From Acidimicrobiia bacterium (GTDB lineage: Bacteria > Actinomycetota > Acidimicrobiia > Spongiisociales > UBA11373), in NCBI GenBank assembly GCA_046714175.1, contig JBKKBI010000093.1:1-63319 (forward strand): DNA of 63,319 bases. Reading direction: 5' to 3'. Below are positions 36,939-59,930 of the stretch, piece after piece; the stretch's first letter is position 1; every line of letters starts with the position of its first letter. The notes under the pieces are model-generated. The model made no database searches, was not told the DNA's origin, and saw only the letters and a list, made by a program, of their open reading frames with translations. A program made the position numbers and the translations under genes.

Positions 36939-38051
36939 TCAGGAGCAGGTGACCAGCGGCTGCAGCCGGAGCACCTCGGCGAGCAGGAGGCGGGTGGACC
37001 TTCCCACCACGCCGTCGATGAGGCGTCCATGGGCGTCCTGGAAGGCGCGTACCGCCCCCACCGTGCGGCTTCCGAAGATGCCGTCAGCCGGGCCCGGGTC
37101 GAGACCGACCACCTTGAGCAGCTGCTGCAGTTCGGCGACGTCCCAGCCCCGGGCACCCGCCCGAAGGTTGCGGCCATCCGGATCCAACACCGATGCGCCG
37201 GCGGCCAGCGAGACGAGTTCGGCGACTTCGGCCCGGGTCATCGATCCGACCACTCCATCGGCGGCGAGCCCATGCTGGGCTTGGAATGACCGCACCGCAG
37301 TGTGCGTCAACGAGCCGAACAGTCCGTCGATCGGCCCGGGAGCATGGCGGAACGCGTCAAGGAATTGCTGCAACTGCCGCACCGGGTCACCACCCGCGCC
37401 GAGGCGCACCAGACCGGTGGCGGCCAGGAGAGCGCCGACGTCGCCTACGCGGGTGATGCCGCAATGGGCCTTGCCTTGGGCGCTGAGAAGCGCGTCGTGG
37501 GCATTCACCAACACCCCGTCGGGGTCGTACAACTCGAAGTGGAGATGGGGTGGGGTGGTCTCAGCGGTGCCGCTGTCGCCCACCCAGCCGATCAGGTCGC
37601 CGGCGACGACACGGGTGCCGAGTTCGATCCCGGGGGCGATCCCCCAGCCGAGGCCGTCGTCGGTACCGGGCGTGTCGTTGTTGAGGTGGATGTACCACGA
37701 CTCCCAGCCGTCGTCGTGGGTGATCACCAGGGTGCAGCATCGCTCCGGATTGAGATCAGCCGGGTTCTGACTCCAGTTGATCCAGGTGACGGTTCCGGTG
37801 GCGGCGGCCACCACTGGTGTCATCTTGGCGGCCATCAGGTCCTGGGCATGATGGGGACCCGAGCCCCGGGCGGCCCAGAACCAGTCCTCGTACCACGCGC
37901 CGCCGACCACGGGGAAGGTGAGCGGATATTCGACCATTTCGCCGTAGTCGTGGGCAGGCCCGTCAAAGGGCTGGGCATGATTGGCCCACGCCGGTGCTGC
38001 CAGCGCGACGAGCATCGTCAGCACCGCGATAGTGACCAGGCGCACTCGCAT
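36939..38051 (-). CDS. Secreted M23 peptidase with two peptidoglycan-binding domains
   Basis: Signal peptide, HHAQDL, YIHL, PHLHFE; DGLFGSLT and DGIFGSRT PG-binding repeats. Confidence 0.9.
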   Translation of the reverse strand: MRVRLVTIAVLTMLVALAAPAWANHAQPFDGPAHDYGEMVEYPLTFPVVGGAWYEDWFWAARGSGPHHAQDLMAAKMTPVVAAATGTVTWINWSQNPADLNPERCCTLVITHDDGWESWYIHLNNDTPGTDDGLGWGIAPGIELGTRVVAGDLIGWVGDSGTAETTPPHLHFELYDPDGVLVNAHDALLSAQGKAHCGITRVGDVGALLAATGLVRLGAGGDPVRQLQQFLDAFRHAPGPIDGLFGSLTHTAVRSFQAQHGLAADGVVGSMTRAEVAELVSLAAGASVLDPDGRNLRAGARGWDVAELQQLLKVVGLDPGPADGIFGSRTVGAVRAFQDAHGRLIDGVVGRSTRLLLAEVLRLQPLVTCS

Positions 38052-48801: not shown

Positions 48802-50048
48802 CGCTCCCACCACTCCCCGGATACGGCGAGGCGCACGGCGTGCAGGGCGGCGGTGGTGGCATACACCCTCACCCGCTCCCGGTCTCCGGGAAGTCGCAGG
48901 GTGCGGGCGTTGCAACCCTCCGGTGTGGCGACCGCGATGAACATCGTCCCCACCGGTTGCTCCAGGGGGTCGGGCCCGGCCGATCCGGTCGTCGCCACGG
49001 CGACCTCCGCCCCCAGCGCGGTTCGCGCCCCGGCCGCCATGGCGAGTGCGGTCTCCGCGCTCACCGCGCCGTGCTCGTCGAGAACCGCCGCGGGGACTCC
49101 GAGCACCGAGGTCTTGACGGCGTTGGCGTAGGCCACCACCCCGCCGCGGAACACCCGCGACGACCCGGGCACGGTGGTGAGGGCGGCGGCCACCAGTCCG
49201 CCGGTGGCCGACTCGGCGCTGGCCAGACTCCAGCCGCGGGCCTCACATGCCGCGAGCACGATGCGTTCGATGGTGTCGGTGTCGGCACCGAACACCAGCG
49301 AGCCGAGGCGGCGGCGGAGCTCCGCCTCCACCGGGGCGATCAGGTCGCCGGCCGCCGCCGCGGTGGGAGCGCGGGCGGTGAGCCGCAGCTTGATCTCCCC
49401 GCCGCTGGCAAGGAAGGCCAGCGTCGGATTGGTGCCGGAGTCGTAGAGATCGCCGACCACCTCGGCGAGACGGGACTCCGACTCCCCCCAGGTGCGCAGC
49501 ACCCGGCTGACGATCCCCCCGGACCGCTCCCCCTCCAGGGCGAGGAGAAACGGGATCACCGCCTCCTCCACCATCGGCACCATCTCCTGGGGCACCCCGG
49601 GAAGGGCAAACACCCAGCAGGTGCCGATCCGCAACCGCAGCCCGGGGGCGGTGCCCTTCGGGTTGGGAATGAGCACCGCCCCGCGGGGATGTTCCGCCTG
49701 CCGAAGGTTGCTGGTGGGCATCTCCCGACCCCGCGCCTGCCACCACTCCCGCAGCTGTTCGGCATACTCGGACGAAGTCTCCATCCCGACCGCGGCGGCG
49801 ACGCACAGCGCCTCCCGGGTCAGATCGTCCTGGGTGGGACCGATGCCCCCGGTGATGACGACGGCGTCGGCGCGGCCGCACGCTTCGGTGAGGGCGGCGG
49901 CGATTCGGGCCACGTTGTCCCCCACCACCGTCTGGCGGTAGTGATCGAGGCCGGCAGCCGCCAGCCGGGCACCGATGTCGGCGCCATTGCCGTTGACGAT
50001 CTGGCCGAGCAACAACTCGGTGCCGACGGCGAGCTGCTCGACGATCAA
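48798..50048 (-). CDS. cinA: Competence/damage-inducible protein CinA
   Basis: VGTELLLG, TGGIGPTQDDLT, AESATGG; TTG start overlapping rimO stop. Confidence 0.94.
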   Translation of the reverse strand: MIVEQLAVGTELLLGQIVNGNGADIGARLAAAGLDHYRQTVVGDNVARIAAALTEACGRADAVVITGGIGPTQDDLTREALCVAAAVGMETSSEYAEQLREWWQARGREMPTSNLRQAEHPRGAVLIPNPKGTAPGLRLRIGTCWVFALPGVPQEMVPMVEEAVIPFLLALEGERSGGIVSRVLRTWGESESRLAEVVGDLYDSGTNPTLAFLASGGEIKLRLTARAPTAAAAGDLIAPVEAELRRRLGSLVFGADTDTIERIVLAACEARGWSLASAESATGGLVAAALTTVPGSSRVFRGGVVAYANAVKTSVLGVPAAVLDEHGAVSAETALAMAAGARTALGAEVAVATTGSAGPDPLEQPVGTMFIAVATPEGCNARTLRLPGDRERVRVYATTAALHAVRLAVSGEWWER

Positions 50049-51355
50049 CCCAGCACCTCTCCCACCAGATCGGAACCGTATGAACCGGTGATCCGTGCCC
50101 GCACCCAATCCCCCGCTTCGCCCCGATCGAGCAGGATCGCCCCATCGATCTCGGGTGCCTCCCGCACCGACCGCGCCACCGCACGACCATCCTCGACGGT
50201 GTCGACGACCACCTCGAACTCGCGGCCGACTACGGCCGCGCTGCGCGCCGCGGTGATCCGCTCCTGGACCTCCTGCACTCGGCGGGTGCGATCGGCGATC
50301 TCGGTCGCATCGATCTGGCCGTCGAGCGACGCTGCCGGGGTCCCCTCCTCCGCCGAGTAGGGAAAGAAGCCACCCCAGTCGAGCTGCGCCTCCTCGAGAA
50401 ACCCGACCAGAGTGTCGACGTCGTCTTCGGTCTCTCCGGGGAAACCGAGAATGAACGAGGAGCGCAACGCCGCCTCCGGCGCCGCAGCACGAATCCGGGC
50501 GATCAACTCCAGATGGCGCTCGCCGTCGCCGGGACGGCGCATCGCCCGCAGCAGACTCCCCGCGGCGTGCTGCAGACTGAGGTCGAAATACGGCGCGATC
50601 AGTGGGTTGGTGGCCATCTCGGCGATGAGGGCGTCGGTGACCTCGCGCGGATACAGATAGAGCAGCCGCAGCCTCCGCAGACCAGCGACGTCGGACACGA
50701 AGCGCAGCAGCTCGACGATGCCCCCGGGGGCGGCGATGTCACGCCCATAGGCGGCGAGGTCCTGGGCGACGAGCACGATCTCGCCCACTCCATCTCCCGC
50801 GAGGAGGGCGATCTCGTCGCGGATATTCACCGGCGCCCGCGACCGCTGCGGTCCGCGGAACTGCGGGATGGCACAGAAGGTGCATCCCTTGTCGCAACCC
50901 TCGGCAACCTTGACATAGGCGTACGGCGTGGCCGGAGTGGGACGGCGCACCTCGTAGAGGATGTCCATCGGACTGGTGGCGAGACGCACCGGCTGCCAGC
51001 CCGTGAGCCGATCCAGGTCGCCGATCAGCTCGCCGTAACGATCCATCCCGAGCACGGCATCCGCCTCGGGGAGCAGATCGGCCAGCTCGGATTGATAGCG
51101 CTGTGCCATACAACCGAGTACCACGAGGCGGGCGCCCTCGCGGCGGCGATCGGCGTGGTCGAGGATGGTATCCACCGACTCGCGCCGCGCCGCCTCGATG
51201 AATGCGCAGGTGTTCACCATCACCACGTCGGCGAGTTCCAGCGAACCGGCGCGGTCGTAGCCGGCCTCATCGAGGCGCGCCTCGAGTTTCTCGGAGTCGA
51301 CCTGGTTCTTGGCGCACCCGAGCGTGGTCAGCCAGACGGAGGGGCGGGAGGACAT
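50045..51355 (-). CDS. rimO: Ribosomal protein S12 methylthiotransferase
   Basis: LGCAKNQVDSE, EGCDKGCTFCAIP, APEIDG. Confidence 0.95.
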   Translation of the reverse strand: MSSRPSVWLTTLGCAKNQVDSEKLEARLDEAGYDRAGSLELADVVMVNTCAFIEAARRESVDTILDHADRRREGARLVVLGCMAQRYQSELADLLPEADAVLGMDRYGELIGDLDRLTGWQPVRLATSPMDILYEVRRPTPATPYAYVKVAEGCDKGCTFCAIPQFRGPQRSRAPVNIRDEIALLAGDGVGEIVLVAQDLAAYGRDIAAPGGIVELLRFVSDVAGLRRLRLLYLYPREVTDALIAEMATNPLIAPYFDLSLQHAAGSLLRAMRRPGDGERHLELIARIRAAAPEAALRSSFILGFPGETEDDVDTLVGFLEEAQLDWGGFFPYSAEEGTPAASLDGQIDATEIADRTRRVQEVQERITAARSAAVVGREFEVVVDTVEDGRAVARSVREAPEIDGAILLDRGEAGDWVRARITGSYGSDLVGEVLG

Positions 51356-52727: not shown

Positions 52728-54002
52728 GTGGACGCGCCCCGATCCCACCCCGATCCCGGGCTGCCAAGCGGGCGGGTGGTGCTCGCCGACCGCTCGGTGC
52801 GTGCCTACCTGGTCGCCGCCTCTATCTCTTCCCTCGGGGCGTTCCTCCAAGCCACCGCTCTCGCCAAGCAGGTATACGACGTCACCGGGTCGGCGCTGGC
52901 ATTGGGACTCCTCGGGTTGGCCGAGTTCCTCCCCGCCGCCCTGCTCGTGCCCTTCACCGGTTCGGTGGCCGACCGCTTCGACCGCCGCAAGGTGGCCGCG
53001 ATCGGCCTCGCCGGAGAGGCGGCGTGCAGCGCCATGCTCGCCGCCTACGCCTGGTCAGACCCCACTTCCTCGTTGCCGCTGTTTCTGCTCGCCTTCCTGT
53101 TTGGTTCGTTCCGGGCCTTCGTCAGCCCGGCAATTCGCTCCCTGCCGCCGTTGGTGGGACCGGCCGGGAGCCTGCCTCGGCTGGTGGCGCTGGGATCAGT
53201 GACCTGGCAGGCAGGGATGATCGTCGGACCGGCGACCTCGGGGTTCCTCTACGACGCGGGTGCCGCCCTCCCCTACCTCTCGGCGATGGCACTATTCCTC
53301 GTCGGGGCCGCCGCCCTGTTGTTGCTGCGGCTCACCCGGACGCAGCAGCGCACCCCGGCGGAGCAGCGCCCCAGCCTGCAACACGCCATGGAGGGGTTGC
53401 GCCTGGTGCGGCGCAACCGGGTGCTCCTCGGAGCGATCAGCCTCGACCTCTTTGCGGTTCTGTTCGGCGGCGCTTATGCCCTGCTCCCCGCCATCGCCGA
53501 CGAACGCCTCGGCGTGGGCAACATCGGATACGGATGGCTGCGCGCCGCCCCCGGTTTCGGCGCGGTGGTGATCACCTTGCTGCTGGCGGTGCGACCGGTG
53601 CGACGCCGGGTGGGCCGGGTGCTTCTCGGCGTGGTGACCCTCTTCGGGCTGGCCACCATTGCCCTCGGGATCACCACCACCTATGTGGTGGCCTTCGCCG
53701 CCCTCGTCGTGCTCGCCGGAGCCGATGCCGTCAGCGTGTTCATCCGCGCCACCATCGTCCCGCTCGCCACCCCGGATGCGATGCGAGGCCGGGTGGCGGC
53801 GGTGGAGAACGTCTTCATCGGCGCCTCCAACGAACTGGGGGCATTCGAGTCCGGGGTGGCGGCGCACCTCATAGGGGTGGCCCCAGCCGTGGTCGTCGGT
53901 GGGTTGGCCACCTGCGGGATCGTGGGCCTGTTCTGGGTGCGGTTCCCCGAGCTGAGGGACATCGACCGGTTCGCGGATCTGGAGAGGCACGCCGGCGGGT
54001 AA
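52728..54002 (+). CDS. MFS transporter
   Basis: [30 protein letters not shown]. Confidence 0.93.
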
Positions 54003-54019
54003 AGGCACCTGCGAGCGTA

Positions 54020-54049
54020 TACACCAGATGGTGTACGGCAGTGTATACT
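54020..54049 (+). promoter_or_regulatory. vapBC promoter/operator (probably leaderless)
   Basis: Inverted repeat TACACCA-GA-TGGTGTA; TATACT -10 eight nt before ATG 54058. Confidence 0.65.
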
Positions 54050-54057
54050 GCAGGCTC

Positions 54058-54258
54058 ATGGGTCGGACCAACATCGACATCGACGACGAGTTGGTGGCGC
54101 GAGTGATGCGCCGCTACCACGTCACCACCAAGCGGGAAGCCGTTCACCTGGCGTTGCGCCGCGCCGCAGGCGAGCCGCTCAGAGGCAAGGAGTTGCTGGA
54201 ACTGCGGGGATCCGGCTGGAGCGGCGACCTCGAGGCGCTGCGCTCCGATCGATCGTGA
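54058..54258 (+). CDS. vapB: VapB antitoxin
   Basis: [13 protein letters not shown]...[11 protein letters not shown]...WSGDL. Confidence 0.9.
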
Positions 54259-54650
54259 TCCTGATCGATACCTCGGCGTGGATAGAGTTTCTGCGCGCCA
54301 CCGGATCGCCGACGGATCGGCGCGTCGCGATGATTGCCGGTGCGGACCCTTACGCGATCACCGATCCGATTGCTGCCGAGTTGCTCGCCGGAGCCACCGA
54401 CGCCCACCAGACACGCAGCGTCCGCGCCGTGATCGACTCGGGTCGGTTCTTCCCGGTACGGCCCCTGTTCGACTACGAGGTCGCAGCCGAGCTGTACCGC
54501 GAGTGCCGCCGTGTCGGGGTGACGCCGCGCAGCCTGGCCGATTGCCTGATCGCCGCGGTGGCGATCGGCAACGACCTGGAAGTTCTCGCCGCGGACCGTG
54601 ATCTCGAGATCATCGCCCGGCACAGCCCACTACGGCTGGCTGCGGTGTGA
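54255..54650 (+). CDS. vapC: VapC PIN-domain toxin
   Basis: [26 protein letters not shown]. Confidence 0.92.
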
Positions 54651-54662
54651 CCGTGGTGGTTA

Positions 54663-54703
54663 GGGGGAAAGGAGCTCCTCAGCGCACGGTCGAGAATCTT
54701 CCC
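54663..54703 (+). other. attL of serine-integrase element (core TC at 54679-54680)
   Basis: GAGCtCCTCaGCGC matches GAGCgCCTCgGCGC at attR; inner arm GCGCACGGTCGAGAATCTTCCC is an inverted repeat of the attR inner arm. Confidence 0.75.
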
Positions 54704-54736
54704 ACCATTCCCTTCCAGATACGTGTGGCCGCGTAG

Positions 54737-55240
54737 GCTTCCTGTTTGAGACGAGCAAGGAGACCACGAAGGTGGAGGCGGGCCTGGCGTGGCGCCCTTA
54801 GCCGATTGGCTGGGGGCGGCTCCGCAATTCTCAACACATGGGCGGCCCACCGGAACCATCGAACTTCTCTGGAAGACAGACGGCAGCTTGCATCAGCGCT
54901 TCGAGGGTCGGACCTCCCGGTAGCCGAGATCGGCCGGGGGACCGCTCCGATCGATGCGACCGCGCAATTGGCCCTGCGCGTGCAAGGCGACCGCTACCCA
55001 ATGCTGGTTCTCGAGACCAGACGCGACTTTGCCGAGAGCGTGGTTAGGGAAGATCGCGGAGTCGGACCCTAGAAGCGGCGAGCGCTGGAGGGACACGCTC
55101 GCACCGAGTCTTAGGGATCGACTAGACGATATCGCTGACCTCGCCCACGCCCTCCTAGGTCAGGCGAACGAACTGTCAGATCTGATCCGAGGCGGCCTTG
55201 CCTACCACCATGCGGGGGTCCCGGCGTCGCTCCTACGAGA
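54737..55240 (+). pseudogene. Frameshifted fragment of Ski2-like DEAD/DEAH helicase
   Basis: LSDLIRGGLAYHHAGVPASLLRE motif; upstream frame PMLVLETRRDFAESV; no intact start or end. Confidence 0.6.
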
Positions 55241-55318
55241 GTGGGGATGGTTCCGGAGATTTCGTAGGCGCGTTCGGGGGGTTACCTCGATGTGGAGGTC
55301 GAGGAGTTCGTAGACCCG
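55240..55318 (-). pseudogene. LSR C-terminal tail remnant (copy 3)
   Basis: RVYELLDLHIEVTP(+1 nt)ERAYEISGTIPT aligns with VIELLDVRVKTTEEDYEISGSIPL. Confidence 0.7.
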
Positions 55319-55371
55319 GTGTCAAGAGTGACAACGGAACTGTGTCGCGACGAAAGGAACAGCGGGCGTGA

Positions 55372-56370
55372 TCATTGCCGCCATAGCACTGGCGTGACAG
55401 TGTGCACGCCCGCGAGGCCCTTGAGCGTCACCGAGAGGGATGCACCGAATCTGAACTCGGCGTCGTCCCCCAGTAGGGCGCGGACCGAGTCGGATGCCAT
55501 GATCTGCCCCCCTTCGGCTGCGGCTGCGATTCGGGCCGCCTTGTTGACGGTGTTGCCGAGGTAGTCGTTGTCGGCGGCCACCGCGTCGCCGGAATGGACT
55601 CCGACTCGGACGCTCAGCGGTATGTCTCCGAGCGCGCCATCGAGGTGCTGTTGGATCTCGATCGCCGCCCGCACTGCCTCCCGGCTCGAGCCGAAGGCCA
55701 GCATCGCTCCATCGCCGAGGGTCTTTACCACCTCGCCGCCGTGGGAGGTCGCTGCCGAGGCGATGATCCGGTGGTGGTCGTTCAGGACTGAAATCCAGGC
55801 GGCGTCCCCCAGTTGGACGGCGAGGGGGGTCGAGTCCTCGATGTCGGTGAACACCAAGGTGACCGTTCCGTGCCGCCCGGAAAGCACGACCTGGCGACCC
55901 TCGATCGACTCCAGAAGCTTGCTGAGAGAGGTGGTGAGGTCGACGCCGAACGACTCGAGGTTGCTTTCCCCCAGCGAGCGGTGCACTTGCACTATGCGCC
56001 ATATTCCGCTCTCGAGAACCAGCACTGCCGTGAATCGGAAGGGAGAAGGTCGGGCATCGCCGACGAAGATCGACGACCGAGCGGCCACCCAGCCAACCGA
56101 ACCCAGGTGGTAGGCCTCGAGTTCGAGGTCTTCATTGTGGTGAGGTAGCCATCCCTCGACGAAGGTCGAATAGGCGTCGACCATGTCAGGGCCAGACCAC
56201 CACTCCTGGGGATCGGTCCCCACGTATCTGGTTACTGCGGAACGCAGGAACATGTTGGCCGCTGTGGCACCCTCGCCCCGTTCCAAGGCGGCAAAGAAGC
56301 GCTCGACGACAGCGCGTAATTCTGGTGAGTCCTCGACGACAGCGCGCAATTCTGGTAAGTCCTTGGACAC
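55372..56370 (-). CDS. SnoaL-like + class III adenylate cyclase
   Basis: VFTDIEDST, VKTLGDG, RVGVHSGD, DYLGNTVNKAARI; N-terminal WRIVQVHRS SnoaL domain. Confidence 0.92.
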   Translation of the reverse strand: MSKDLPELRAVVEDSPELRAVVERFFAALERGEGATAANMFLRSAVTRYVGTDPQEWWSGPDMVDAYSTFVEGWLPHHNEDLELEAYHLGSVGWVAARSSIFVGDARPSPFRFTAVLVLESGIWRIVQVHRSLGESNLESFGVDLTTSLSKLLESIEGRQVVLSGRHGTVTLVFTDIEDSTPLAVQLGDAAWISVLNDHHRIIASAATSHGGEVVKTLGDGAMLAFGSSREAVRAAIEIQQHLDGALGDIPLSVRVGVHSGDAVAADNDYLGNTVNKAARIAAAAEGGQIMASDSVRALLGDDAEFRFGASLSVTLKGLAGVHTVTPVLWRQ

Positions 56371-56417
56371 CCGCCCTCCGGCACCGGGTGGGAGAGGCTA
56401 GTGCGACTTCCCGGGTC

Positions 56418-56579
56418 GGCGCGCATGGTGAGACTGATGCGGAACGGAAAGGCCATTCCGGCCAACTCTTGACCGGGGCTCCGAGGGGCCTCTGCTGAGA
56501 GTTCACCGGGGTTAGTTAGTGGGCCGTGGGTGGGGATGGTTCCGAAGATTCCGTAGGTGCACTCCGGGGTTACCTTGAA
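56418..56579 (-). pseudogene. LSR C-terminal tail remnant (copy 2) containing an intact att-like site at 56458-56509
   Basis: FKVTPECTYGIFGTIPTHGPLTNPGELSAEAPRSPGQELAGMAFPFRISL; 25-bp imperfect inverted arms around TC core. Confidence 0.7.
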
Positions 56580-56611
56580 CCCATCCTCGGTCCTCGCCAT
56601 AGACTCGCCTG

Positions 56612-56787
56612 GTGGTGACCTGGCTGCGTGGTGCCGCCTTGCCGATCGTTGCGCTAATGCTCGCCTCGGGTTGCGGTGGTGCGACTGGTGGGACTTTGCC
56701 GCTGCAACCGTCAACAGGCCAGACAGTCGATGGGGGCGGCACCTCGCTCCCGGCTTCTGGCTCGGGCGGCCGCGTAGTCGACTATCT
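56612..56787 (+). pseudogene. Truncated lipoprotein gene fragment
   Basis: VTWLRGAALPIVALMLASGC lipobox; runs into recombinase fragment. Confidence 0.4.
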
Positions 56788-57500
56788 AGCTTCAGCCTCG
56801 AGGGTCAACTCGAACGGCTGACCACGCTGGCGGGGCGACTCGGCTATGAGTGGGAGGACTTCTGCGACTCCGGGATCTCAGGGGAGAAGCTGGAGGAACG
56901 CGGGGCGATCATGCAGCTGCTGGGCAGCCTGGACCGGTTCGACGCGGTCATGGTCGTGGACGAGTCGCGGTTGGCGCGAAGCGAGGATGTCGCCTTTGCG
57001 ATCCGGGGTGCCTTCCGTGAAGCCAAGGTCCGCCTGATCACCCTCGAGGGTGAGACAGACCTCAGCGACCCCGGTGAGTCCGCCATGTCGGCGGTACGAA
57101 CCGTGTTCGGGGTGATGAGACCGCAGACGGCGCGTCGAGGAAATCCACGAGGAGCGGAGACGCACATTCAGAGACGGTCCCACACTCGGCCTCACCAGCT
57201 CTGAGATCCGTGCAGTCCTCGCAGGGCTCGCTGGCGAACGAAGCGAACTCGACCGAGAGATCCGGACCCTCGAGGGGAAACTCCTCGTCGCCGAGAGAAG
57301 CCCTGACACGGCCGCGACCCTCAGGCACCTCGCCAGCATCGCGGTAGCTCGGCTTGAGACCCCGAACCTCCAACTCCAGGCCGCGGTCATCGAGCTCCTC
57401 GACGTCCGGGTCAAGACAACTGAGGAGGACTACGAGATCAGCGGATCGATCCCCCTCGACACCAGCACATTCGACGGGAAGATGCCGACACGAGCGCCTC
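56788..57500 (+). pseudogene. Large serine recombinase pseudogene (catalytic N-terminus and central recombinase/zinc-ribbon region missing)
   Basis: SLEGQ...DSGISG...DESRLAR resolvase domain; after about 57115 a new frame gives coiled coil then IELLDVRV...EISGSIP. Confidence 0.8.
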
Positions 57501-57516
57501 GGCGCCCCTTACCTCG
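57476..57516 (+). other. attR of serine-integrase element (core TC at 57499-57500)
   Basis: GGGAAGATGCCGACACGAGCGCC-TC-GGCGCCCCTTACCTCG. Confidence 0.75.
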
Positions 57517-57535
57517 CCGCTTCGCACGGTTCACC

Positions 57536-57808
57536 TCAACCACCCAACCCCGCGACCCGAGCGGCCAGCGGCCCCGGGCCGACCGCTTCGAGCAGGGCGG
57601 CGAACGCCGCATCAGCTACGCGCCCCGCGGCCGTGAGATCGGCCGCGGCCAAATCCACCGCCGCGACCAATGACGCAAACGCCCCCACCTGATCCAGCGC
57701 CGCCGCATCGGCGGCGGCCTTGCGCGCCGCGTCGCCGTCGCCCTTCTCCAAAGCCTCCAATGCGCGCTCGGCGGCACTGAGCGCTTTGCGCTGCTGCTGG
57801 CCGTCCAT
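57536..57808 (-). CDS. Hypothetical Ala-rich protein
   Basis: TGATG overlap with E2 stop; helical composition. Confidence 0.7.
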   Translation of the reverse strand: MDGQQQRKALSAAERALEALEKGDGDAARKAAADAAALDQVGAFASLVAAVDLAAADLTAAGRVADAAFAALLEAVGPGPLAARVAGLGG

Positions 57809-58953
57809 CAGCCCGACACCGCCTCGATGGCTGTGCTGACCGCCGACAAGAAGGCCCGCCCCTTGGCCCCATCGATCACACGATGGTCGTACGAGAGGGA
57901 CAGCGGCATCTCCCGCCCGATGCCGATGGCGCCATCGCGCACCACCGGCTTCTCCACCGCCCGGCCCACCGAAAGGATGGCGGTGGTGCCGTAGGGGATG
58001 ATCGGGGTGCCGAAGCCGCCGCCGACCGCACCGATGTTGGAGAGGGTGAACGTGGCGCCCCGCAGGTCGCCCGCGGCCATGGTGCGGTTGCGAGCGGCGG
58101 TCGCAACGCGGACTATCTCGGCGGCGAGGCCGGCGGTGTCGCGGGTGTCGGCCGACCGCACCACCGCGACGAGCAATCCTTCAGGGGTGTCCACGGCGAC
58201 GCCGATGTCGTAGTGCCGGCGCAGCAGGAGATGGTCACCGTCGAGGGTGGCGTTGAACTCGGGGAACTCCTTGAGCACCGGGACCACCGCCTCGATCAAC
58301 AGTGCCTCGAGAGGCATCGCACCTCCCTCGCCGCCGAGGCGGGAGCGTGCGGCGAGGATCGGCCCGGGATCGGCGGTGCCGAAGGTGGTGACGTGGGGGA
58401 TCTCCTGCCAGGAGCGGGTGAGGTTGCGGGCAATGGCGAGCCGGGTGGCGCTGAGGCGCACCCGCTCCACCGGGCCACTCCCCTGCGCCGTCCCCTCGAC
58501 GTCGCCCCGCAAGACGCGACCCCCCGGCCCACTCCCCCGGACGGTGGCGAGGTCGACTCCCATCGACGCCGCCAGACGCCGCACCAGTGGCAGGGCCTGC
58601 GGAGCACCGGATCGGGCCGGCACCGATTCGGCCTCGTCGAGGTTGCCGACGATGGGACGTGCCTCGCGCCGCGGTGCAGCCGCTGGCGTCGGCGCCGCGG
58701 CGCTCCACGATTCCCCCTCCTCTCCGATCACCACCAGCAGCGAGTCGACGGCGAGGGTGGTGCCGGCGGGGGCACCGTGGTGCAGGATCACCCCGGCCCG
58801 CGGCGCCGGGATCTCCACAACGGCCTTGTCGGTCTCGATCTCGACCATGGGCTGGTCGAGTCCGATGCGACTGCCCACCGCCACCTTCCACGCCACGATG
58901 GTGGCCTCGGTGAGGCCCTCGCCGATGTCGGGGAGATGGAACTCGTACGCCAT
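57808..58953 (-). CDS. 2-oxoacid dehydrogenase E2 (dihydrolipoamide acyltransferase)
   Basis: Lipoyl ETDKA, GSGPGGRV, SYDHRVIDG. Confidence 0.94.
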   Translation of the reverse strand: MAYEFHLPDIGEGLTEATIVAWKVAVGSRIGLDQPMVEIETDKAVVEIPAPRAGVILHHGAPAGTTLAVDSLLVVIGEEGESWSAAAPTPAAAPRREARPIVGNLDEAESVPARSGAPQALPLVRRLAASMGVDLATVRGSGPGGRVLRGDVEGTAQGSGPVERVRLSATRLAIARNLTRSWQEIPHVTTFGTADPGPILAARSRLGGEGGAMPLEALLIEAVVPVLKEFPEFNATLDGDHLLLRRHYDIGVAVDTPEGLLVAVVRSADTRDTAGLAAEIVRVATAARNRTMAAGDLRGATFTLSNIGAVGGGFGTPIIPYGTTAILSVGRAVEKPVVRDGAIGIGREMPLSLSYDHRVIDGAKGRAFLSAVSTAIEAVSG

Positions 58954-59930
58954 CACTCCTCCAGGGTGCGCCGGGCGGCGGCGACAATGCGGTCGACTCC
59001 GGGAATGTGGTCGCGTTCGGTGCGCTTCAGCGGCACCACGGTGTCCCATCCGGTGACCCGTTGCACCGGGGCGTGCAACGAATAGAGCGCGGCCTCCTGC
59101 ACCAGGGCGGCGACTTCGGAGGCGATCCCGGCGGTGCGATGGCCCTCGCTGATCGCCACCACCCGTCCGGTCTTCTCTGCAGATGCCACCACGGTGGCGG
59201 CATCGAGCGGGGCCAGAGTGCGCAGGTCGACCACCTCGGCGGAGACATCGTCGGCAGCGAGGGCGTCGGCGGCGCGCAAAGCGTCGCGCAGCATCGCCCC
59301 GTAGGCGACCAGGGTGACGTCGGAACCCTCCCGCACAACGGCGGCAACCCCGATGGGGAGGGTGTAGTGGCCTTCGGGTACCTCTTCCTTGATCGCCCGG
59401 TACACCCGGATCGGCTCGAGGAACACCACCGGGTCGGGGTCGGCGATGGCGGCGAGCAGCAAACCCTTGGCCGCAGCCGGGGTGCCGGGAGCGACCACCT
59501 TGATCCCCGGGGTGTGGACATACATTGCCTCACTGGATTCGCTGTGATGCTCGGCGGCGCCGATACCGCCGCCATAAGGGATGCGGATCACCATCGGGGC
59601 GGTAAAGCGATGGTTGCTCCGATTGCGGATCCGGCCGACATGACTGACGATCTGGTCGTAGCCCGGGTAGGAGAAGCCGAGAAACTGCAGTTCCGCCACC
59701 GGGTGCAGTCCCGCCACCGCCATCCCGAACGCAGCCCCGACGATCCCCGACTCCGCCACCGGAGTGTCGATCACCCGCTCGGGTCCGAAGCGCTCCAGCA
59801 ATCCGTCGCTCACCCGGAATACCCCGCCCGCCCGGCCGATGTCCTCACCGAGCAGCACCACCCGATCATCCTCCACCAGGGCGACTGCGAGGGCGTCGTT
59901 GAGGGCCTGGGCCAGGTTCATCTCGCTCAT
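58953..59930 (-). CDS. pdhB: 2-oxoacid dehydrogenase E1 beta
   Basis: GEDIG..GGVFR, DTPVAE, EHHSES. Confidence 0.92.
   Translation of the reverse strand: MSEMNLAQALNDALAVALVEDDRVVLLGEDIGRAGGVFRVSDGLLERFGPERVIDTPVAESGIVGAAFGMAVAGLHPVAELQFLGFSYPGYDQIVSHVGRIRNRSNHRFTAPMVIRIPYGGGIGAAEHHSESSEAMYVHTPGIKVVAPGTPAAAKGLLLAAIADPDPVVFLEPIRVYRAIKEEVPEGHYTLPIGVAAVVREGSDVTLVAYGAMLRDALRAADALAADDVSAEVVDLRTLAPLDAATVVASAEKTGRVVAISEGHRTAGIASEVAALVQEAALYSLHAPVQRVTGWDTVVPLKRTERDHIPGVDRIVAAARRTLEE

Follow-up and report, generated by a model that had tools for sequence, protein, structure and literature searches.

The window analysed here is a stretch of 63,319 nucleotides from an Acidimicrobiia bacterium, part of a genome (G000) assembled to 1.89 Mb in 103 contigs. 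Its segment 54658-57520 is the subject of this report: it holds pieces of a gene for an integrase of the large serine recombinase (LSR) type and, at its two ends, sequences that resemble the attachment (att) sites on which such enzymes act. Positions 54679-57500 are very probably the decayed remnant of a small integrative element, one of a family of elements found in this Acidimicrobiia family, in which attP overlaps the 3' end of the LSR gene; the behaviour of such an integrase may depend on the tail that is encoded beyond the crossover point. The features on which the argument turns are these.

54658-54678, forward strand: B half-site of attL (attB-type arm), matching the family consensus for B-type arms at 11 of 17 positions, by eye
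54679-54680, forward strand: crossover dinucleotide TC in attL
54681-54703, forward strand: P' half-site of attL, type 1, with the outer motif ATCTTCCC at 54696-54703
54680-54736, forward strand: the final 18 codons of the integrase with their stop, detached here; in the excised form they would read QRTVENLPTIPFQIRVAA-stop
56779-57114, forward strand: LSR (a), N-terminal resolvase-domain fragment, corresponding to residues 15-126 of the 500-residue LSR of the relative G007 (69.6% identity by tblastn; PF00239, 53 bits)
57134-57498, forward strand: LSR (a), C-terminal coiled-coil and tail fragment, of which 57134-57466 aligns to residues 376-486 of the G007 LSR
57476-57498, forward strand: P half-site of attR, with the outer motif GGGAAGAT, within the LSR reading frame and kept at the DNA level in homologues
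57499-57500, forward strand: crossover dinucleotide TC in attR, followed by the flank
57501-57520, forward strand: B' half-site of attR, whose reverse complement matches the B-type consensus at 13 of 17 positions, by eye

In the integrated state seen in the window, the LSR frame arrives at the attR crossover as ...GKMPTRAP and runs on for 58 codons into the flank. The frame that begins at the C of the attL crossover reads QRTVENLPTIPFQIRVAA over 18 codons to a stop at 54734-54736, and it is compatible with the LSR frame. The initial annotation had placed attP inside the integrase gene by joining attR to attL in frame at the shared TC, with the stop ending at 54736; when the window sequence was re-read, the coordinates, the frame of the join and the end of the stop codon were all as claimed. 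The arms of the attP so reconstructed are symmetric at 14 of 22 positions in a scripted register, or at 15 of 22 in the register of that annotation, counted by hand. Since the reverse complement of the P arm finds 29 places in the window where at least 14 of its 22 positions agree, arm symmetry alone is weak and not convincing. The attL stretch shares 80-91% DNA identity with sites on six other contigs in which a P' arm is followed by the tail. An additional GGGAAGAT motif is present at 55047-55075, preceded by GGTTA as in the B arm of attL; it lies at the end of a spurious-looking open reading frame (ORF; 54746-55072) and may be another degraded half-site.

The integrase gene itself has decayed. 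Its C-terminal piece stands directly behind the resolvase piece in another frame, residues ~127-375 (the recombinase and zinc-ribbon domains) are deleted, and the N-terminus, which should hold the catalytic serine, has either been lost or shifted out of frame. The match to PF00239 (3.8e-14, window 56557-57204) covers profile positions 14-120 only, so that the segment of the catalytic serine is not in frame, and PF07508 has no match anywhere in the whole genome to which the window belongs. As its sequence reads, the window copy is an LSR pseudogene, and for this reason no switching would be possible at this locus. A word-based search for longer relatives of the 126-residue C-terminus found none.

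Other searches reach further. Run with HMMER against 1.84 billion proteins, the 126-residue C-terminus gave 11 matches, and among 401 genomes of the order matches occur in eight, G000 counted. Intact LSR genes are present in G007, G022 and G203, and a partial gene lies at a contig end in G195. The G007 homologue comprises PF00239, PF07508, PF13408 and a coiled-coil C-terminus; the second and third of these domains are found in the G022 and G203 homologues as well. Among public collections, genome_contigs yielded only the three genomes already found and metagenome_contigs one contig of 2.2 kb; viral_contigs gave no match, and there is no sign that the elements are phages. Six LSR genes, those of the window and of five homologues (one on a metagenome contig), have GGGAAGAT-N15-TC in common at the DNA level, and directly after the TC their sequences are unrelated. 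Other LSR genes occur in G203, G010 and G007; the four whose 3' ends were examined belong to other subfamilies with different C-termini and are uninformative on the layout.

The intact element of G007 (contig C27) measures 13.1 kb, from an attL TC at 37612-37613 to an attR TC at 50743-50744, and its LSR gene at 49250-50752 encodes 500 residues. Its attR is broken at the same codon as the attR of the window. The reverse complement of its P arm has a partner 13.1 kb upstream that matches at 19 of 25 positions, the top score in 47 kb (next best 16), and here, in attL, the P' arm is followed by codons for LPFRIRVAA-stop; the frame on the attL side comes to 18 codons. The integrated integrase gene continues for two residues (PR) past the crossover before a stop. 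As cargo the element carries genes for a helix-turn-helix ImmA/IrrE-type regulator, a peptidoglycan-binding protein and unknowns. The empty site is seen in G020, of the same genus, within an amidase gene: the left- and right-flank alignments meet there with TC alone in common. Only this dinucleotide is common to the G020 attB and the G007 attL and attR, as expected for a 2-bp crossover without a long direct repeat.

The comparison of G007 with G020 thus bears out the attP within the 3' end of the integrase gene, the TC crossover and the LSR-type arms in both reconstructed sites, and the breakpoints hold in relatives, where the empty-site junction falls at the TC and the homologous LSRs reach the att core. 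One other origin for the attL piece, that it is what a frameshift left of the 'EISGTIP' motif region, as its best local alignment suggested, was dropped; the G007 attL has the identical layout of P' arm and tail. Sequence comparison establishes the site architecture, the breakpoints and, for an intact relative, the empty site; it also establishes protein-level selection on the tail.

The following mechanism is proposed. In the free element the P arm would encode ...GK(M/I)xTxxx, with the crossover TC 18 codons ahead of the stop, and the P' arm with 10 further codons would encode ...C-R-Y-L-P-x-x-x-F-(R/Q)-I-R-V-A-A-stop. Integration of attP into attB would park the tail at attL, while the integrated gene would gain a short end encoded by the flank, PR-stop in G007 and QHP-stop in many others. 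The tail may in this way tie the behaviour of the integrase to the state of integration. The intact homologue otherwise resembles the known LSRs (phiC31, Bxb1, A118/LI and SPbeta SprA) in its resolvase, recombinase and zinc-ribbon domains and its coiled-coil C-terminus. To our knowledge, the model serine integrases have attP outside the integrase gene; here, unlike them, it lies inside the frame, 18 codons before the stop, and attL takes away a conserved tail. The sites are alike in the 2-bp crossover, the imperfect inverted attP arms of ~23 nucleotides and an attB outer motif 5 bp nearer the centre (for the shift, PMC3783163).

Whether the tail is a peptide can be judged from its copies. A pattern that excludes the last four codons finds 31 sites in 15 of 41 genomes of the family and none in a reversed control; with the window copy there are 32 distinct copies of P' arm plus tail, all in this Acidimicrobiia family. 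The second alanine is kept in all 32, the first in 29 and the valine in 28, with isoleucine in two more. A stop codon follows the tail directly in 22 copies, with both TAG and TGA used at the same place, and 21 of the 32 end in (V/I)-A-A-stop. The last three codons occur in nine combinations, and the entropy of their third positions is 0.78, 1.42 and 1.25 bits (at most 0.45 at positions 1 and 2); the two alanine codons vary almost solely at the third base (1.42 and 1.25 bits versus at most 0.34), and isoleucine keeps AT-N. This wobble-tolerant conservation points to a translated peptide under selection. The tail beyond the crossover, which the initial annotation had read as ending in Ala-Ala, is by the evidence of these 32 copies and of the G007 attL a conserved coding sequence with that end. 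Upstream of the tail, the frame is open for just 9-107 codons in 31 of the 32 copies, so the peptide would be made only when P' is joined to the integrase gene, that is, in the excised form.

The same short upstream frames can be turned to another use. If the stretch behind the P' arm acted as DNA, for instance as a terminator, a promoter of the left end or an accessory binding site, its coding capacity would be incidental, and its presence in recombinase-less cassettes and at solo sites, with no long ORF reading in at 31 of 32 copies, would be easily understood. The variation has a period of three bases, however: alanine codons change at the third base, isoleucine stays AT-N and TAG alternates with TGA, and a DNA motif would not tolerate exactly synonymous changes. 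A DNA element is accordingly a highly improbable account of the stretch.

What the peptide might do is less clear-cut. The preferred reading, held tentatively and at somewhat less than even confidence, is that the V-A-A carboxyl terminus acts as a ClpXP degron like that of the ssrA tag. Such a degron would keep the integrase of the free circle short-lived, and the form encoded by the integrated element would be without it; among the integrated-form ends that were read, none is Ala-Ala. The tag encoded by the host transfer-messenger RNA is AEDNFAQAA in the window's genome, and relatives have AEDNFALAA and AEPELALAA, with -LAA ends in four of them. The clpX gene is present in five of five genomes.

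Several observations weigh against a degron that is switched by integration. The stop is lost in 10 of the 32 tail copies. P0006 ends in ...VPVR, and a second type of P' arm and tail (QHPCQDF...), from the same family of sites, has no Ala-Ala at its end, which is ...LVLDE, ...STSN or ...RVPNP. Recombinase-less cassettes carry the tail too, and in them it cannot join an integrase. No full-length LSR ORF with a VAA tail is among the 11 HMMER matches from 1.84 billion proteins, and a profile of the tail run against 5.8 billion proteins (8000 candidates scored) recovered three short ORFs at attL-type sites only. Finally, the sequencing contigs of the G007 element span both integrated junctions and list no attR-to-attL or flank-to-flank joint, an absence that is not evidence against excision.

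These points leave room for a second function at the protein level. The tail could be a working part of the integrase that, for example, positions or restrains the coiled-coil or zinc-ribbon domains, such that the free form is competent for integration and the truncated form altered in activity or directionality. Conservation does extend well past the last two residues, since C, L-P, F and I are invariant or almost so in the 32 copies, and the type-2 tails retain a QxPC..F...F pattern and not Ala-Ala. A precedent for an altered enzyme is Myxococcus phage Mx8: according to a review, int acquires a new 3' end on integration, by which the enzyme is modified yet not inactivated (PMC6070905). Against this, the P' arm codes for L-P and for some of C-R-Y, so that a constraint on the DNA site may explain part of the conservation; the outer motif of P' itself encodes L-P, and the invariance of that pair may be due to the DNA. 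The strictest wobble-tolerant conservation, moreover, falls on V-A-A-stop, the part that resembles the end of the host ssrA tag. A working tail of this kind is a possibility, though a rather unlikely one, and the ssrA-like degron is kept as the preferred reading in what follows.

Exchange of a C-terminus at an att site has parallels outside the serine integrases. Mx8 Int is a tyrosine recombinase. Its likeness to the present case lies in an attP inside the integrase's coding sequence and a new 3' end upon integration; it differs in that the gene here encodes serine recombinase domains, the loss amounts to 18 residues and their end is similar to an ssrA tag. For Mx8, attP is placed within int, and the recombinant gene formed on integration, with its new 3' end, yields a protein that is still active but changed in its properties (PMC6070905). 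The integration-dependent immunity of mycobacteriophage BPs is similar in that attP lies in an ORF and integration removes the C-terminus of its product. In that system the split gene is the repressor, proteolysis has been demonstrated by experiment and the recombinase differs in kind from the LSR considered here; in the window's family the gene that is split encodes the integrase, and its degron is putative. A C-terminal proteolysis signal is also described for the BPs integrase itself (PMC4557955). Archaeal integrases of the SSV type have their recombination site within the integrase ORF (PMC7253208); they are tyrosine recombinases whose gene is split into two large inactivated parts, whereas here only the last 18 codons are exchanged. 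A full-text literature search, with subscription journals outside its coverage, found no publication that describes exchange of a tail at an attP within the gene for serine integrases.

The window locus can now be placed in its surroundings.

Up to 52715, forward strand: inositol-monophosphatase-family gene (PF00459)
52728-54002, forward strand: major facilitator superfamily (MFS) transporter gene (PF07690)
54028-54650, forward strand: vapB (54028-54258) and vapC (54255-54650), the left flank of attL, outside the LSR element (PF09957, PF01850)
55200-55322, reverse strand: relic (c), a frameshifted C-terminal fragment of a subfamily-2 LSR (..VYELLDLHIEVTP / ..YEISGTIPT..), repeat D1, 83-89% identical to LSR 3' ends elsewhere
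55372-56370, reverse strand: SnoaL-like and adenylate/guanylate cyclase gene between LSR relics, either cargo or resident (PF00211, PF13474; paralogues at 67-69% identity)
56418-56600, reverse strand: relic (b), a subfamily-2 LSR 3' end whose attP-type site is unsplit, with its core GA (as read on the forward strand) at 56483-56484 and a type-2 P' arm
57536-57808, reverse strand: conserved gene for 90 residues, the right flank, with homologues in 17 of 41 genomes (G000 counted), the E2 gene always adjoining
57808-59049, reverse strand: 2-oxoacid dehydrogenase E2 gene

In G002 and G004, of the same genus, the stop of the MFS gene overlaps the stop of the 90-residue gene, which implies that vapBC and the relic (54003-57535) are both extra in the window. 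In six other relatives there is no MFS gene at this place and the phosphatase gene adjoins the 90-residue gene. The homologues of vapC in relatives sit in unrelated contexts. A second C-terminal LSR relic is present in the window's own genome, at G000:C82:4554-4633, and is 83% identical to window 55241-55322. At the 5' end of the cyclase gene there is a tandem duplication of 30 nucleotides (56302-56361, 93% identical), by which PELRAVVE(D/R) is repeated in the predicted protein.

The relics bear on how the two ends of the window remnant came about. The initial annotation had taken an intact paralogous tail at 56418-56579 as independent support for the reconstructed attP. The tail does exist; it comes from a second LSR subfamily, whose P' arm is of a different type, and protein similarity across the junction is weak. 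Because foreign LSR relics lie inside, separate events in a composite region of accretion may each have left one of the two sites, attL (54679) and attR (57499), in which case the 48-bp attP never existed as such. Within the 2.8-kb interior lie the remains of two further LSRs, both oriented the opposite way and one of them provided with an unsplit site of its own; across the family, arrays and solo attL-type sites are frequent. Nor was an empty site found for this locus, which counts, with the composite interior, against a single element: a direct junction of vapC with the gene at 57536-57808, predicted by the initial annotation, is not seen in the 40 relatives searched, in which these two genes never occur on one contig, and no attB-like site lies downstream of the vapC homologues in relatives. 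On the other hand, both arms are of type 1 (GGGAAGAT and ATCTTCCC), in the correct orientation and in frame, and both B arms are attB-type. A separate origin of the two ends is doubtful on this evidence, and the conclusion at the level of the family is independent of the ends in the window.

The larger set of sites in the family follows a regular grammar. In P arms the outer motif lies 22-23 nucleotides from the core in 12 of the 13 LSR 3' ends listed; the exception, L063, has no such site. In the left arms of the P'-plus-tail sites the outer motif is found at 17 nucleotides in 7 of 32 cases (0.33 expected from shuffles) and at 22-23 nucleotides in 4 of 32, and many arms fit loosely. The right flanks of integrated LSR genes resemble an inverted arm of the 17-nucleotide type. 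For LSRs, a shift of 5 bp in the outer (zinc-ribbon) motif between attP and attB half-sites is described in PMC3783163, and the two spacings, as measured on these motifs, are that attP/attB shift. The inner arm is identical in B' and P', which explains why many integrated homologues end in ...LQHP-stop.

The inner part of the sites is a near-perfect palindrome, GTCAGGGGTGCC-TC-AGCACCCCTGAC, that occurs with at most two mismatches in 55 copies in 22 of 41 family genomes (reversed control, 0); examples are G010:C214:3742-3767 and G195:C26:8747-8772. Some of these copies resemble attB sites that are unoccupied. Natively the palindrome might be a terminator or a repeated element.

LSR-type sites of the B-P' and P-P' kinds also form arrays in one orientation, as at L106 (G199:C32, 149-7434) and at L159 (G010:C214), L160 and L161. 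The array units consist of one or two genes, among them those for E1 dehydrogenase alpha and beta, an MFS transporter, a methyltransferase and unknowns. On G199:C32, six sites of the same orientation stand between such units and the array has no recombinase gene; on G010:C150, type-2 sites are only 0.45-0.94 kb apart. A methyltransferase cassette of 1.2 kb at L106 (4850-6099) is 96% identical to one at G007:C106 1889-3137 (L072), against 75% for the neighbouring chromosomal DNA, and on the right side the identity stops exactly at the TC core. This suggests a recent transfer of a recombinase-less unit between species. The only recombinase linked to the array sites is the LSR.

A further LSR gene, cut by a contig end, lies at L043 (G195:C103, 6417-7169) and has a type-2-like tail that is unsplit, in the attP form. 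It could represent a free form, a tandem junction or a domesticated copy. Its neighbours are PadR, DUF1048 and ATP-binding cassette transporter genes and, farther away, pyruvate:ferredoxin oxidoreductase genes.

These arrays recall two known systems. The integron, with its tyrosine recombinase IntI and its attI and attC sites, is unlike them, since the array sites here are LSR-type B-P' or P-P', although no search aimed at IntI was made. Staphylococcal cassette chromosome (SCC) elements stack in tandem at one locus, as units bounded by repeated att sequences. They share with the present family the organisation of serine-recombinase elements in tandem arrays that include units without a recombinase; here the LSR is of a different clade and the host of a different phylum, the target is not rlmH, and each genome has many dispersed, palindromic attB-like sites. 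Composite staphylococcal islands with recombinase-less pseudo-SCC units, alongside the Ccr serine recombinases, are described in a preprint (bioRxiv 10.1101/336396). By analogy, the family might be an SCC- or integron-like system in which autonomous elements coexist with recombinase-less cassettes of one or two genes that have common P...P' ends, inserted at a multi-copy palindromic attB, built into arrays of one orientation and moved between species, with an integrase whose V-A-A degron would be present only when the element is free and cut off by integration. Taken as a whole, so specific a picture is speculative and probably wrong in some part.

For the window itself the practical conclusion is limited, since the integrase system at this locus is a relic and no longer alive. 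Serine integrases are valued because the integrase alone integrates and an extra factor is needed for excision. The rewriting of a C-terminus by integration is known for the tyrosine integrase of Mx8 and for the phage repressor of BPs, and for a serine integrase the literature search found no description of it. If true, an integration-dependent C-terminus would be a built-in sensor of the state of integration, and the part removed would be a strongly selected, ssrA-like V-A-A end. The small recombinase-less cassettes, common to several species and stacked in arrays, hint at a system of cassette exchange in a poorly studied class of actinobacteria.

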